Source of the DNA: a virus
Taxonomy: Duplodnaviria > Heunggongvirae > Uroviricota > Caudoviricetes
Reading direction: 5' to 3' (one strand)
DNA length: 5,181 nucleotides
IMG/VR virus record: IMGVR_UViG_2778261227_000008
Numbering within the stretch: position 1 is the stretch's first letter; the number at the start of each line of letters is the position of its first letter. The notes beneath the pieces are model-generated. The model saw only the letters and a program-made list of their open reading frames with translations. It had not been told where the DNA came from and ran no database searches. A program made the position numbers and the translations under genes. Shown piece after piece: positions 630 to 4,545 of the stretch.

Positions 630-1055
630 TCAATGCACAGCCACAATATTTCCTGCAGGGCCACCACGATTCATCTGGTTGAAACCAGCGATCGCCACTG
701 CGACAAAATCATCAGCGTCTCTCACCAGTCGTTCCCGCGTCTCCACTAGTTCCCGAAAATAGGCTGAGCTATGGCTGCGCATTCGGGCCACCAGCAGAGG
801 TGGCATTGCTTTTTCGATAGCTGGTAACAACGCCTGAATTTTTTTAACCGCATCAGGGGTGTCTTTCTCCACCCAGCGGAAAATTTTCTGAGTATTGCGT
901 GCCAGGGCTTCCGGATGGCTGTCGTCATACAGTTCCGGGAACGTAATTCCCAGTTCGAAATACGCTTTGGTAATCTCTGCAGCCGGTACTTTCTCGCCGT
1001 CCGGATGTGCCCAGGCATTCATCGCCATGCGGATGTGTTCATGCTTGATTTTCAT
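630..1055 (-). CDS. ydaT: YdaT-like protein, 141 aa (CII-like regulator of Rac/CP-933P-type prophages; historically annotated as a toxin)
   Basis: ORF-track protein starts MKIKHEHI and is 141 aa. It lies immediately downstream of a Cro-like gene, with ATGA start/stop overlap at 1052-1055. Size and synteny match Rac ydaS-ydaT. The name is from recollection of the family, not a search. Confidence 0.7.
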   Translation of the reverse strand: MKIKHEHIRMAMNAWAHPDGEKVPAAEITKAYFELGITFPELYDDSHPEALARNTQKIFRWVEKDTPDAVKKIQALLPAIEKAMPPLLVARMRSHSSAYFRELVETRERLVRDADDFVAVAIAGFNQMNRGGPAGNIVAVH

Positions 1056-1354
1056 GAATCAACTCCATCAGATAAGCATGCACTACAATCACCTTCAGCA
1101 TGGACTACATGTGTTTGCCCCAAACGAATGCCGCTCGCATACTCAGGCCAAATAAGCTCCCAATCATGGGGTCGTAGCTCCGCCCTACTTACCTGGCCTT
1201 CCGTCGCAGATTCGATCATAAGGGCGCGGGTTGGAGATATAGCTGCTCGTCCAGACGCCATTTGCGATAAGTAAGATGGCGATACACCAAGTCTGGCCGC
1301 GAATTTCTTAGCATCACCAACTCTCAATGATTTAATAAACTCTTTTAATGTCAT
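1052..1354 (-). CDS. ydaS: YdaS-like Cro/HTH (XRE-family) DNA-binding protein, 100 aa
   Basis: ORF-track protein contains LGVSPSYLSQMASGRAAISPTRALMIESATEGQVSRAELRP, a typical HTH recognition-helix pattern. SD-like GAGGAAGG sits just upstream of ATG at 1354. It is divergent from the repressor-like gene and coupled to ydaT. Confidence 0.7.
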   Translation of the reverse strand: MTLKEFIKSLRVGDAKKFAARLGVSPSYLSQMASGRAAISPTRALMIESATEGQVSRAELRPHDWELIWPEYASGIRLGQTHVVHAEGDCSACLSDGVDS

Positions 1355-1382: not shown

Positions 1383-1445
1383 AGTTTAGTGTTTAATAAA
1401 CCATTAAGTCAAGTATTTGCTTGTTTAGTGATTACTAAAGATAAT
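1383..1445. promoter_or_regulatory. Divergent promoter/operator region between ydaS and the repressor gene
   Basis: Minus-strand promoter candidate: -35 TTGACT (rc of 1407-1412), 18-nt spacer, -10 TAAACT (rc of 1383-1388). Plus-strand candidate: -35 TTGCTT 1417-1422, 17-nt spacer, -10 GATAAT 1440-1445. The 11-bp palindrome GTTTA-A-TAAAC at 1391-1401 lies in the minus-promoter spacer. Direct repeats GTTTAGTG(T/A)TT at 1365-1375, 1384-1394 and 1423-1433. Elements read by eye, not scored. Confidence 0.5.
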
Positions 1446-1451
1446 TACCAC

Positions 1452-1823
1452 ATGCAAAAAAAAGAAATTCGCCGTTTACGTCTCAAGGAGTGGTTTAAAG
1501 ATAAAACTCTGCCACCCAAAGAGAAGAGCTACCTATCTCAACTAATGAGTGGGAGAGCCTCGTTTGGAGAAAAGGCTGCCAGAAGAATAGAGCAAACATA
1601 CGGGATGCCGGAAGGGTATCTGGATGCGGAATACGCAGAACAACCGGAGGTTTCTCCACCACATGCAGGGTTAACGTCTAATCAACTGGAATTATTGCAG
1701 ATTTTTTCAGCCTTCCCTGAGGATGAGCAACGCCAGATAATCAGCGAGTTAAAGCAGAAAAAAGAATCAATGGAAGACCTCATAGCGAGATGGATTGCGG
1801 CGCAAAAATGCCGCCGCGCCTGA
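1452..1823 (+). CDS. paaR2: HTH transcriptional regulator of a three-component toxin-antitoxin operon, 123 aa; occupies the prophage repressor position
   Basis: ATG at 1452, in frame within track ORF 1389..1823; the GTG at 1389 has no SD. XRE-like segment EKSYLSQLMSGRASFGEKAARRIEQTYGMPEGYL. It is divergent from the Cro-like gene and followed by an antitoxin-toxin pair. Identified as paaR2 from memory of the E. coli O157:H7 paaR2-paaA2-parE2 system; paralogue number not verifiable here. Confidence 0.65.
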   Translation: MQKKEIRRLRLKEWFKDKTLPPKEKSYLSQLMSGRASFGEKAARRIEQTYGMPEGYLDAEYAEQPEVSPPHAGLTSNQLELLQIFSAFPEDEQRQIISELKQKKESMEDLIARWIAAQKCRRA

Positions 1824-1843
1824 GTTATAAAACCGGAGGAAAC

Positions 1844-2035
1844 ATGAATAGAGCCCTTTCACCAATGGTTTCTGAGTTTGAAACCATTGAACAAGAAAAC
1901 AGTTACAACGAATGGCTGCGTGCGAAAGTAGCAACGAGCCTTGCAGATCCGCGCCCAGCAATTCCTCATGACGAAGTTGAGCGCAGAATGGCAGAACGCT
2001 TTGCTAAAATGCGCAAGGAACGGAGCAAGCAGTAA
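1844..2035 (+). CDS. paaA2: Small antitoxin, 63 aa (PaaA2-like)
   Basis: ATG at 1844 with SD GGAGGA at 1835-1840, in frame within track ORF 1790..2035. Product is MNRALSPMVSEFETIEQENSYNEWLRAKVATSLADPRPAIPHDEVERRMAERFAKMRKERSKQ. Its stop is 1 nt before the toxin start. Size and position fit the antitoxin of the ParE2 system, as recalled. Confidence 0.7.
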   Translation: MNRALSPMVSEFETIEQENSYNEWLRAKVATSLADPRPAIPHDEVERRMAERFAKMRKERSKQ

Positions 2036-2036
2036 A

Positions 2037-2315
2037 ATGTTACCCGTATTATGGCTTGAAAGCGCAGATACCGACTTGGATGATATAACTGGTTATATTG
2101 CTCGTTTCGACATAGATGCGGCAGAACGCTTATGGCAGCGATTAAGGGGTTGTGTGCTGCCGTTATCCGAACACCCGTATTTATACCCACCAAGCGACAG
2201 GGTGCCTGGCTTGCGTGAGATTGTGGCCCACCCTAACTATATAATTCTATACCGCGTAACAACATCAAGCGTTGAAGTAGTAAACGTGATCCACGCAAGA
2301 CGCCAGTTTCCCTAA
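2037..2315 (+). CDS. parE2: RelE/ParE-superfamily toxin, 92 aa (ParE2-like)
   Basis: ATG at 2037, in frame within track ORF 1941..2315. C-terminal pattern YIILYRVTTSSVEVVNVIHARRQFP is typical of ParE/RelE folds. Tightly coupled to the upstream antitoxin. Confidence 0.7.
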   Translation: MLPVLWLESADTDLDDITGYIARFDIDAAERLWQRLRGCVLPLSEHPYLYPPSDRVPGLREIVAHPNYIILYRVTTSSVEVVNVIHARRQFP

Positions 2316-2386: not shown

Positions 2387-2428
2387 GTTTAGTTTTTACT
2401 TGACTTGAGTTTAATGTTTATTAAACTA
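2387..2428 (+). promoter_or_regulatory. Second operator/promoter copy (PL-like) pointing rightward toward the ydfA-like gene
   Basis: -35 TTGACT 2400-2405, 16-nt spacer, -10 TAAACT 2422-2427. Palindrome GTTTA-T-TAAAC at 2416-2426. The 22-mer gagtttaatgtttattaaacta (2407-2428) matches gagtttagtgtttaataaacca (1382-1403) at 19 of 22 positions. Half-site-like GTTTAGTTTTT at 2387-2397. Confidence 0.5.
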
Positions 2429-2603
2429 CAAATACCAACCCACCCCGCCCCACAGAATGCAGGGCAATACTTCGAGTTACCCGGCAGTGGTCAGGGGTTA
2501 AGTAGCCAGCCCGAGGCGTATGAACATGACGGCAGGGTTCAACTTTAACTATGCAGCAGGTTTTTGTTCCGCTACCCCGGCGTTAAGGGGAAATGAGGTC
2601 AAC

Positions 2604-2756
2604 ATGGATACTATCGATCTTGGCAACAGCGAATCTCTGGTATGTGGCGTGTTTCCCAACCAGGACGGTACGTTCACCGCGATGACGTATACCAAAAGCA
2701 AAACGTTTAAAACCGAAGCTGGCGCGCGTCGCTGGTTATCCAGAAATACTGACTGA
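2604..2756 (+). CDS. Small YdaF/YdfA-like prophage protein, 50 aa
   Basis: ATG at 2604 with GAGG at 2594-2597, in frame within track ORF 2520..2756. Product MDTIDLGNSESLVCGVFPNQDGTFTAMTYTKSKTFKTEAGARRWLSRNTD resembles the ~51-aa Rac YdaF / Qin YdfA proteins as I remember them. First gene after the PL-like promoter. Confidence 0.55.
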   Translation: MDTIDLGNSESLVCGVFPNQDGTFTAMTYTKSKTFKTEAGARRWLSRNTD

Positions 2757-3142
2757 TGAGATTAACGATGGAATTTAAAGATTTACCAACACCTTTCCAG
2801 GAAATGGCAGCGAATATAGTTCGTTCTCAATTGGCGACTCTTGACCTGAGTACCGTAGAAAAAGAAACCATAGATAATATATCCGGTAACGTGCGCCGTG
2901 CCTTTATCGGGTTGTACGAAGAGAAGCAGCACTCTGATAAGCATGATTCCTCTGAAAAATACTTCCTGGAATTAATGGATATCATTAACAAGGGGTTTGG
3001 TTTGTTGATGGAAAAGAAAGGGATTCGAATAGAACCCCTTAAAAACCATTTTACTGAGTGCAACATTAATTCCTGTGATTTAAAGCATCCCACTTCAGAT
3101 GGGAAAGTTGAAGCCAACTATAAAATATCAATTAATCATTAA
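2756..3142 (+). CDS. Hypothetical protein, 128 aa (124 aa if started at ATG 2768); no domain recognised; apparently AT-rich
   Basis: Track ORF 2756..3142. The ATG at 2756 overlaps the upstream stop (TGATG). Base composition looks clearly more AT-rich than flanking genes by eye (not computed). No motif I can assign. Confidence 0.5.
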   Translation: MRLTMEFKDLPTPFQEMAANIVRSQLATLDLSTVEKETIDNISGNVRRAFIGLYEEKQHSDKHDSSEKYFLELMDIINKGFGLLMEKKGIRIEPLKNHFTECNINSCDLKHPTSDGKVEANYKISINH

Positions 3143-3198
3143 GTTCTCCACGGGTGAGGTGGAGAACATGCGCCGGACACGGATAAATCTCCGGCATG
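3143..3198. terminator. Two hairpins between convergent genes; candidate bidirectional terminators
   Basis: Hairpin 1: GTTCTCCAC 3143-3151, 7-nt loop, GTGGAGAAC 3159-3167 (perfect 9-bp stem). Hairpin 2: CATGCGCCGGA 3167-3177 pairs with TCCGGCATG 3190-3198 with one bulge, followed by CTCTTT. No strong U-tract on either strand. Confidence 0.4.
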
Positions 3199-3220
3199 CT
3201 CTTTAACATTCTGGATATTC

Positions 3221-3667
3221 CTAACCACAAAGAAATCGCATCAATTTAGATTTTGTGGGCAGCTTCTCTTGTTGTTCGATGGAAACGCCTATTTTGATCT
3301 GTGTTTTTAAGATCGCAATATCTTTAAGTGATGACCAAATATGATCATCCGTTTTTTCCAGAATTTTTAACTGCATTTTCAATTCAGAATCAGAATATTT
3401 TTCTGCATCATCAAAAAGCTGCAAATATTCTGCGGATTTTCTCATGGCGTTACCTGACTTTTGTCCGAATCCATAAATCGTTTGGACGGTTGCGATCACA
3501 ACAATAAAAACGCCAGAAATTTCCGGAATGAATCCGCCAATGACAGATGAACCGAGGATAATACTCACCACTGAGAGAAGTTTATCGAGACGACCAGTCG
3601 CTACAGAAAATAGTTGCTCAAGAAAATAGCCATATAAAATTCTGTCAAGAATATCATCCCGGTCCAT
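3221..3667 (-). CDS. Small two-transmembrane membrane protein, 148 aa; SieB-like (superinfection exclusion) by position, or a SLATT-like 2-TM effector
   Basis: Track ORF; ATG at 3667 with AGGTGA upstream. Two hydrophobic helices (LLSVVSIILGSSVIGGFI and ISGVFIVVIATVQTIYGF) followed by a charged helical tail. Orientation opposite to the PL-like operon and adjacent to a ydaF-like gene, as sieB is in Rac. Functional name is inference. Confidence 0.55.
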   Translation of the reverse strand: MDRDDILDRILYGYFLEQLFSVATGRLDKLLSVVSIILGSSVIGGFIPEISGVFIVVIATVQTIYGFGQKSGNAMRKSAEYLQLFDDAEKYSDSELKMQLKILEKTDDHIWSSLKDIAILKTQIKIGVSIEQQEKLPTKSKLMRFLCG

Positions 3668-3673
3668 ACATCA

Positions 3674-3820
3674 TCACCTGCTTGTTTGGTTGTTGCTGTT
3701 CCCCCTCTCCTCCGAAGGAGCTGGAGATGGTTTTGGTCGAATGTTTTTCTCTGGTATGTGATCCCAGACTGTTTTATGTGTCGAATTGCCACCACCTGCT
3801 TGTGCTCTTTGCTCTGTCAT
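3674..3820 (-). CDS. Possible small ORF, 48 aa, immediately upstream of the two-TM gene; uncertain
   Basis: Internal ATG of track ORF 3674..3937, with AAGGA 6 nt upstream. Its stop TGA is 7 nt before the two-TM gene ATG. Product MTEQRAQAGGGNSTHKTVWDHIPEKNIRPKPSPAPSEERGNSNNQTSR is hydrophilic and low-complexity. A plus-strand ORF at 3727..3882 with SD AAGGAG competes for the same DNA. Confidence 0.25.
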   Translation of the reverse strand: MTEQRAQAGGGNSTHKTVWDHIPEKNIRPKPSPAPSEERGNSNNQTSR

Positions 3821-4119
3821 ATGATTTCCTTGGATCGTTGGGGATATCCAGATTATACAGATTTCTTGTCGTTGGGGAATGACAGGAACCACCTCGCCTG
3901 ACGTGGTTAAAAGCAGGCACACAACACGAAAGCGCACGGCGAAGTCATTTCTCCCTCTGTTGCGTGTCGCCGGTATCTTCGACCGTGCGCTTCCGGTTGT
4001 GGCACTCCGCGAAATGGCGCGGCGGTAAGTATGGCGGGGTTATCCTTACCCCCACTGGTAGCACCGGGTTGTCAGGTTGACCATACGCCTGAGTGACAAC
4101 CCCGCTACAACACTCCATG

Positions 4120-4176
4120 TTGATTTGTACCTTTGGCGGCATCAGTTTCATTGCTGGCTGATGTCCCCCCTTTTTA
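4120..4176 (+). ncRNA. dicF: DicF-like small RNA with terminator-like 3' hairpin and U-tract
   Basis: Sits directly upstream of dicB as in the Qin dicB operon. Segment TTTGGCGGCATCAGTTT matches my recollection of E. coli K-12 DicF (TTTGGCGGTATCAGTTT). Stem CATCAG/CTGATG extended by G-C pairs and followed by CCCCCCTTTTT (4165-4175). 5' boundary is estimated; the 5' portion differs from K-12 as I recall it. Confidence 0.5.
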
Positions 4177-4178
4177 AA

Positions 4179-4340
4179 GTGAATTTTGTGATGCGGTGAA
4201 TGCGGCTGAGCGCACGCGGAACAGTTAAAAAGCGATTAGTTCCCCCGTATCGGGTGTTTATGGGTTTCCCTGTATCCGGCGTTAATTGTTAACTGGTTAA
4301 CGTCACCTGGAGGCACCAGGCACCGCATCACAAAATTCAT
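4179..4340 (+). other. 20-bp long-range inverted repeat bracketing the dicB leader
   Basis: GTGAATTTTGTGATGCGGTG at 4179-4198 is the reverse complement of caccgcatcacaaaattcat at 4321-4340 (19 of 20, the last pair G-U in RNA). The 3' arm ends 4 nt before the dicB SD (GAGGA 4345-4349). Confidence 0.6.
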
Positions 4341-4356
4341 TGTTGAGGACGCGATA

Positions 4357-4545
4357 ATGGAAACGTTATTACCAAACGTTAATACGTCTGAAGGTTGTTT
4401 TGAAATTGGTGTCAGAATCAGTAACCCTGTATTTACTGAAGATGCCATTAATAAGAGAAAACACGAACGGGAGTTATTAAATCAAATTTGCATTCTTTCT
4501 ATGCTGGCCCGTTTACGTCCGACTCAAAAAGGATACTGGCAATGA
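4357..4545 (+). CDS. dicB: DicB cell-division inhibitor, 62 aa
   Basis: Hand translation gives METLLPNVNTSEGCFEIGVRISNPVFTEDAINKRKHERELLNQICILSMLARLRPTQKGYWQ, recognised as DicB. SD GAGGA 7 nt upstream. Confidence 0.9.
   Translation: METLLPNVNTSEGCFEIGVRISNPVFTEDAINKRKHERELLNQICILSMLARLRPTQKGYWQ

Follow-up and report, generated by a model that had tools for sequence, protein, structure and literature searches.

The antisense cassette and its SLATT-superfamily protein

The window analysed here, a stretch of 5,181 nucleotides from the IMG/VR virus record IMGVR_UViG_2778261227_000008 (Caudoviricetes), belongs to a Qin/Rac-like lambdoid prophage of Escherichia coli, of which it is the immunity and early-left region. 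Within it, two genes converge, namely orf124 (2768-3142, plus strand) and orf148 (3221-3667, minus strand), the latter coding for a membrane protein of the SLATT superfamily and preceded on its own strand by a proline-rich small open reading frame (small ORF, 48 amino acids, 3674-3820) that is mostly unannotated. Small ORF and orf148 lie in a cassette (about 3197-3908, minus strand) that pairwise blastn reveals as an indel relative to related prophages. The original prediction had singled out positions 2756-3667 as an AT-rich insertion of accessory cargo in the early-left region of a lambdoid prophage, comprising a 128-residue protein and a convergent SieB-like protein. Its views of composition and setting are confirmed, the latter by the Qin/Rac-like gene order: the GC content of this segment is 0.387, compared with 0.477 in the left and 0.478 in the right flank, and it ranks 17th lowest among 4270 sliding 912-bp windows (minimum 0.384, starting at 2742), with a GC content of 0.376 in each of orf124 and orf148. 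Of 5426 complete E. coli genomes, 13 share the same 1.6 kb at ≥98% identity, with both ORFs listed by RefSeq as 'hypothetical protein'.

The orf148 product has 148 amino acids. Two hydrophobic segments (residues 30-47 and 51-68), separated by a 3-residue loop, make up a predicted transmembrane (TM) hairpin (30-68), which is followed by an 80-residue helical and charged tail (14 K+R and 12 D+E); the two-TM-plus-charged-tail architecture originally described for this protein thus holds. Judged by sequence comparison and structure prediction, orf148 is a standalone two-TM protein of the SLATT superfamily, which is said to have been defined in Burroughs et al. 2015. This assignment is already known, as it is carried by UniProt, where an identical sequence (A0A1E5WV07) is named 'SLATT domain-containing protein' and the entry places the gene on roughly a thousand sequenced E. 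coli contigs. When 84 family members were scanned singly, 29 matched NCBIfam NF033632 SLATT_4 (best E=1.2e-5), 8 matched SLATT_1 and one matched the Pfam SLATT_4 model, while unrelated families were each matched by no more than 3 of them. In PADLOC-DB v2, orf124 and the DUF1391 gene gave no match; orf148 matched only RTasSLATT, and weakly (E=0.002), with no reverse transcriptase nearby, and its family members gave weak matches to CBASS 2TM effector models. Over its full length, orf148 matches phrog_6315 (E=1.4e-23, residues 2-148 against 3-148 of the 152 profile positions), which is listed as of 'unknown function', and a search of the PDB with the family profile returned nothing significant.

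The structural evidence comes from an AF2 model. A first prediction built on 7 close homologues reached a pLDDT of 56 and was discarded, and the rerun with an alignment of 48 diverse sequences gave a pLDDT of 81 and a pTM of 0.70, with predicted helices at residues 3-44 and 48-65 and four further helices towards the C-terminus. In a Foldseek comparison of this model with the viral predicted structures of BFVD, SLATT proteins made up 10 of the top 21 matches, mostly at probabilities of 0.9-1.00 and with query-normalised TM-scores of up to 0.65. Close relatives of orf148 are few, forming 23 clusters exclusively from Enterobacteriaceae. When 1.84 billion representatives were searched with a profile, 145 proteins were retrieved, all of them standalone and mostly about 150-180 amino acids long where complete, none of which has a precomputed Pfam domain. 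Using a subgroup alignment, we found 6 loci in a genome scan and 18 in a viral-contig scan, and a second alignment added 38 viral-contig loci.

The small ORF (product MTEQRAQAGGGNSTHKTVWDHIPEKNIRPKPSPAPSEERGNSNNQTSR, with the proline-rich stretch …HIPEKNIRPKPSPAPSEE…) has an AAGGAA Shine-Dalgarno sequence upstream, and its stop codon lies 6 nt before the ATG of orf148. A proline-rich small ORF ending 6-16 nt before the SLATT gene was present in nearly every locus examined across the family, with products such as …KHMPVKQRPPVPPKED in Enterobacter, MEGKM.INQFG…P.PDGQVPYRP.P.P.PK in the Klebsiella/Edwardsiella subgroup, …HVPYRPAPVSPPKPQK in Providencia and …VPKTHPPRPKVF in Polynucleobacter. When 18 sequences of the Klebsiella/Edwardsiella subgroup were aligned by codon, the pairwise differences came to 1104, 894 and 2312 at codon positions 1, 2 and 3, respectively, and columns varied at 25/25 third positions, as against 15 at position 1 and 14 at position 2. 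With roughly twice as many differences at the third position as at the first or the second, the substitution pattern is of the coding type, which argues that the small ORF is translated and its peptide constrained. orf124 had originally been cast as the partner of orf148; this was not borne out, as the conserved partner is instead the small ORF, just outside the 2756-3667 segment. The peptides had no PHROG match. A GTG-initiated ORF of 87 amino acids (3674-3937) was also considered, and we regard it as an over-extended version of the small ORF.

Annotation of the small ORF is limited to two phages, PSTNGR2lys and EKP1, where it stands immediately before a SLATT homologue. In EKP1 the two genes sit at another site, in antisense orientation, with the lysis genes on one side and the gene for the antitermination protein on the other; they thus move as a unit. 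The EKP1 pair (3347-3941 of its locus) encodes a SLATT protein 31% identical to orf148, and the recorded host of the phage is Elizabethkingia (Bacteroidota). Its neighbours, i.e., a class II holin, Rz and the antitermination protein, look lambdoid. This points either to a wide host range of the cassette or to a host assignment that should be checked. An allele in E. coli 08-00022 (3951-3965 of its locus, window equivalent 3686-3788) lacks most of the small ORF owing to a deletion of approximately 100 bp, bounded by CAGGTG[A/G]TGGT as short direct repeats; its orf148 is 97.8% identical and still has the Shine-Dalgarno sequence upstream. This natural 'leaderless' variant should be useful experimentally.

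The boundaries of the cassette are seen in strain ML35, whose prophage aligns by blastn to window positions 2428-3196 and again from 3909, with about 31 bp in place of the 712 bp found here. Qin of K-12 also lacks the cassette, aligning to 3142-3182 and then from 3976. On the right, the cassette reaches about 240 bp past position 3667, where the predicted segment had ended. At its upstream edge lies a hairpin, H0 (AACCAC-gtcaggcga-GTGGTT, 3887-3908, minus strand), which is conserved with compensatory changes in PSTNGR2lys (AACCTCA…TGAGGTT) and in the Enterobacter and Klebsiella loci. Reading from the sequence, we also found a perfect -10 hexamer of a putative cassette promoter, TATAAT (3852-3857, minus strand); three E. 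coli alleles have it unchanged, and the Enterobacter and Providencia loci contain similar boxes. More generally, the 5' region of the cassette (3820-3908) is kept at the nucleotide level in comparison with the Enterobacter and Providencia phage loci (…CAYCAGGC..GGTGG…ATTCCCCAAC…CTGGATATCCCCAAC…AAGGAA). Since this conservation exists although the SLATT proteins are only about 28-45% identical, it suggests a constrained regulatory DNA or RNA element.

Independence of orf124 and the orf148 cassette

Although originally taken as one insertion, positions 2756-3667 do not behave as such: the indel spans only about 3197-3908, and orf124 is an alternative allele at the position of ydfB/ydfC. The DNA of orf148 was found in 89 of the 5426 complete E. 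coli genomes and orf124 in 1334 (about 25%; 695 near full length), mostly without orf148. Each also occurs in other surroundings, with orf148 following DUF1391-ydfB-ydfC-like genes in E. coli 08-00022 and lying directly after a frameshifted DUF1391 gene in O157:H7 MB41-1, and orf124 being present without orf148 in strain ML35. orf124 and the orf148 cassette are two independent accessory modules, each found without the other.

orf124 is an accessory gene of the early-left (pL/dicB-type) operon. An ATG overlapping the stop codon of the DUF1391 gene (TGATG, 2754-2770) would yield the 128-residue protein originally proposed; since its homologues, the PHROG profile and RefSeq all begin at M5 (position 2768, 12 nt downstream, MEFKDLP), the start is probably there and the product has 124 residues. 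The protein is soluble and acidic. It matches phrog_6937 over its full length (E=1e-71, residues 5-128 against 1-124 of the 124 profile positions), a PHROG of 'unknown function', and its residues 5-67 also match phrog_1363, 2151 and 9419. As had been suspected, no motif in it could be placed, since PHROGs of unknown function are the only matches; nor was homology to a housekeeping phage function, or any other match, found in Pfam, NCBIfam, PADLOC or the PDB, the last searched with the family profile. Homology to YdfB or YdfC was considered and ruled out by hhalign (probability ≤0.2%). Relatives of orf124 fall into 227 protein clusters in which the N-terminus is conserved and the C-termini diverge, the conserved module spanning about 53 amino acids (MEFKDLP…NVRRAFIGLYEEK) and the variable part being the C-terminal half; the C-terminal variants gave no Pfam match. 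The N-terminal 50-57 residues recur, joined to unrelated C-termini, in early-left proteins of Stx phages and of phage Evi.

Between orf124 and orf148 lie two conserved hairpins, H2 (3143-3167) and H1 (3168-3199), which together form an element with the pairings GCCGGA…TCCGGC and then CTCCAC…GTGGAG. The element is located 3' of orf148 in this window; in the Klebsiella/Edwardsiella subgroup it is part of the 5' leader, just before the small ORF, and it is also present in prophages without orf148 (the ML35 prophage, Qin of K-12 and phage Evi). Compensatory changes were seen in 5 of the 11 predicted base pairs, and the element had no Rfam match. It is probably a terminator or a module-boundary element, and it could be a leader structure or a recombination boundary.

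Two readings give orf124 a larger role. According to one, orf124 and orf148 were acquired as one unit of two cooperating genes, such as an effector with its regulator or antitoxin. The genes are indeed adjacent, convergent and equal in GC content, they are parted only by the hairpin element, and 13 complete genomes carry them together. However, their distributions are very unequal and each occurs in other gene contexts, distant relatives of orf148 never have an orf124-like neighbour, and the hairpin element exists without the cassette. This model is thus largely refuted by the distribution of the two genes, and we give it hardly any credence. The other reading sees in orf124 an early anti-defence or host-takeover protein, whose N-terminal module would dock on a common partner while its C-terminus would reflect an arms race. 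Its orientation with the early-left operon, directly after the DUF1391 gene, the recurrence of its N-terminal module in Stx-phage and Evi early-left proteins whose C-termini are unrelated, and its wide occurrence in E. coli genomes speak for such a role. On the other side, there is no homology to any characterised protein or domain in Pfam, NCBIfam, PADLOC, PHROG or the PDB, and among lambdoid accessory genes C-terminal mosaicism is frequent and need not point to anti-defence. Such an early role, whether anti-defence or directed at the host, is possible but unsupported, and as an account of the locus we find it doubtful. orf124 itself is of modest value, as it marks a common early gene of E. 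coli prophages with a modular architecture.

The sieB slot and the surrounding genes

In Rac, racR, ydaG and ydaF (DUF1391) converge on sieB, which is followed by kilS and kilR. In the window, the CI-like gene, the DUF1391 gene and orf124 converge on orf148, which is followed by the DicF-like RNA and DicB. In calling the orf148 product SieB-like, the original prediction was thus right about position, i.e., the Rac sieB slot, and about topology, but not about ancestry. The Pfam SieB model recognises Rac SieB (1.5e-31) but neither orf148 nor any of its 84 relatives, hhalign of the orf148 family against Rac SieB gives a probability of 0.3%, and BLASTP an E-value of 0.31. An Esc-like internal start was also rejected, as M75, the only methionine after the TM hairpin of orf148, is unconserved among close homologues. 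The slot is shared more widely. In prophages of four genera, relatives of orf148 with about 21-30% identity are encoded in antisense orientation, with the repressor on one side and kil/exo/int on the other, the hosts being Enterobacter hormaechei, Klebsiella pneumoniae, Providencia alcalifaciens and a Polynucleobacter, and the Providencia phage PSTNGR2lys has a 45%-identical relative in the same slot.

The remaining genes of the window are a YdaT-like gene (630-1055, minus strand), a Cro/YdaS-like gene (1052-1354, minus strand), a CI-like repressor gene (1389-1823, plus strand), a PaaA2/ParE toxin-antitoxin pair (about 1790-2315, plus strand), the DUF1391/YdfA-like gene (2604-2756, plus strand), a DicF-like RNA (4122-4170, plus strand), DicB (4357-4545) and, after it, a DUF1482/YdfD-like gene and the start of an exonuclease gene. 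The PaaA2-type antitoxin (Pfam PF21217, E=1.7e-19) and the ParE toxin (PF05016, E=1.1e-15) are encoded directly downstream of the CI-like repressor, a spot that in phage lambda is the position of rexAB. The PaaA2/ParE region is common to phage Evi. E. coli 1303 has the same orf124-orf148 locus with a different repressor and without the PaaA2/ParE pair. The DicF-like small RNA scores 30.3 bits and is thus below the Rfam gathering score of 48, and an STnc100 match of 37 bits (4168-4389, plus strand), also below threshold, spans the leader and the start of dicB; the dicF-dicB region aligns at 87% with its Qin K-12 counterpart. Shorter AT-rich patches exist outside the segment considered above, at 1301-1600 (GC 0.357) and in dicB (GC 0.37). 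A 68-amino-acid ORF (3945-4151, minus strand), a hypothetical protein in RM8082, is unannotated in other genomes and lies opposite the DicF-like RNA, and is for these reasons probably spurious.

Possible function of the cassette and its relation to known systems

Taken jointly, the SLATT relationship of orf148, the two-gene nature of the cassette and its independence from orf124 are in our assessment highly probable. The explanation that we favour for the locus as a whole, with a little better than even confidence, is that of an independent orf124 module next to an antisense exclusion cassette, made up of the small ORF and the SLATT gene, in the sieB slot. For the anti-phage function of the cassette taken by itself, we consider the chances to be evenly balanced. 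The mechanism that we propose for it draws on SieB of lambda and P22, a prophage-expressed abortive exclusion function, and on the membrane-perturbing role proposed for SLATT effectors.

According to this mechanism, the cassette would be transcribed from its own putative promoter in the lysogen, against the repressed early-left operon, and the SLATT protein would enter the inner membrane as a helical hairpin. Upon infection by a heterologous phage, it would oligomerise or open, thereby collapsing the integrity or potential of the membrane, so that the infection would be aborted or the phage excluded, as with SieB and as has been proposed for SLATT effectors in CBASS and DRT. Gating of the toxin may fall to the leader peptide in one of two ways, either through termination-reinitiation coupling (compare mok for hok) or ribosome pausing on the proline-rich stretch, or through inhibition by the peptide as a labile partner. 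On induction of the resident prophage, the cassette would be silenced by convergent transcription of the early-left operon, which would spare the phage's own lytic growth. A bolder and tentative proposal, which we hold to be possible but rather less than likely, is that the peptide and the standalone SLATT protein together make up a two-component system, so far undescribed, for abortive infection or exclusion, which temperate phages of Enterobacterales and beyond carry as an antisense moron and which replaces SieB without being homologous to it. In that case the peptide would serve as the sensor or gate, for example as a translation- or EF-P-sensitive leader or as a labile inhibitor displaced or degraded on infection, and a SLATT pore would be controllable without a nucleotide or complementary-DNA signal.

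Several observations weigh against the exclusion-cassette explanation. orf148 itself reaches E≤0.05 with no SLATT model of Pfam or NCBIfam (PF18181-PF18186, NF03363x), with nothing at E≤0.1 in Pfam as a whole and no SLATT model at E≤1 in NCBIfam, so that its link to SLATT by sequence is transitive through its family, and the SLATT matches from Foldseek have E-values of just 0.01-0.3. Characterised SLATT proteins act together with a partner that generates a signal, for instance a cyclase or reverse transcriptase. Over 4-6 kb of the window, and likewise of the Enterobacter, Klebsiella, Providencia, Polynucleobacter and phage loci, no cyclase, SLOG, TIR or reverse-transcriptase gene was found, the small ORF being the only conserved neighbour. 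A consensus promoter scan lists no canonical sigma-70 site for the cassette, the TATAAT at 3852-3857 being omitted because of its weak -35 element. Finally, the small ORF is not strictly required for the retention of orf148, since the intact orf148 allele of 08-00022 has lost it.

Other functions can be assigned to the same genes. The small ORF and SLATT gene might form a toxin-antitoxin-like addiction module that serves prophage stability, host physiology or persistence and has no direct anti-phage role. The tight coupling of a small upstream gene to what is predicted to be a membrane toxin, the presence of another toxin-antitoxin pair (PaaA2/ParE) in the same prophage and the movement of the cassette as a self-contained moron are all consistent with such a module, but the cassette is kept across genera in the slot of an exclusion gene, sieB, and an intact SLATT allele without the small ORF would be unexpected if the latter coded for an essential antitoxin. 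We therefore consider a pure addiction module unlikely, although toxin-antitoxin and abortive-infection roles are not mutually exclusive. Still less probable, in our view, is that orf148 serves the phage's own cycle, as a holin- or antiholin-like timing factor or as a membrane modifier in lytic growth or entry. It is a small two-TM membrane protein, and the EKP1 cassette adjoins holin-lysozyme-Rz genes, yet in all contexts, EKP1 among them, the cassette runs opposite to the operons next to it, and most loci lie in the immunity/early-left region, far from the lysis genes. Furthermore, orf148 is absent from most closely related prophages and is thus dispensable, and its relatives are SLATT proteins rather than members of holin families.

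Literature searches (RefSeq accessions; SLATT with prophage or superinfection; prophage defence screens) returned no description of the cassette. Specifically, we did not find described a standalone SLATT clade in the sieB slot, the pairing of a SLATT protein with a small ORF instead of an enzyme, or a mobile antisense cassette of this kind. SLATT proteins are widespread predicted suicide effectors whose activation is an open question even in characterised systems like DRT10. If the exclusion-cassette explanation is true, a cassette of about 700 bp with a tiny conserved peptide as partner would offer a simple model for the restraint and release of SLATT proteins. The sieB slot of lambdoid phages would then be a hotspot filled by unrelated membrane effectors, and the annotation of the orf148 gene, and of a small ORF missed by annotation pipelines, would be aided.

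Among known systems, the toxins of the hok/mok/sok type resemble the cassette in that a small upstream frame ends at the start of a membrane-toxin gene, suggesting translational coupling, and in that antisense transcription across the locus is likewise available as a regulator. However, there is no homology between the two, no dedicated antisense small RNA was identified here, orf148 is much larger (148 amino acids, two TM helices), its leader does not overlap the toxin gene, and the small-ORF peptide sequence is itself under purifying selection. The SLATT effectors (SLATT_1 to SLATT_6, found in CBASS, DRT3/DRT10 (UG17), AbiA/UG23 and RADAR) share with orf148 the 2TM hairpin with helical extensions and the predicted role of a membrane-perturbing suicide effector. 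In contrast to them, orf148 falls below threshold for every curated SLATT model, and it is standalone, with a proline-rich peptide of 26-52 amino acids as its partner, at a fixed position in the phage. SieB (lambda, P22 and Rac; Pfam PF14163) occupies the same slot in the same orientation, antisense within the early-left operon, and like the orf148 product it is small, resides in the inner membrane and combines N-terminal TM helices with a soluble tail, being also accessory and presumably prophage-expressed. Besides having no sequence relationship to SieB, orf148 differs from it in the conserved proline-rich small ORF that precedes it and in having no conserved internal start of the Esc type.

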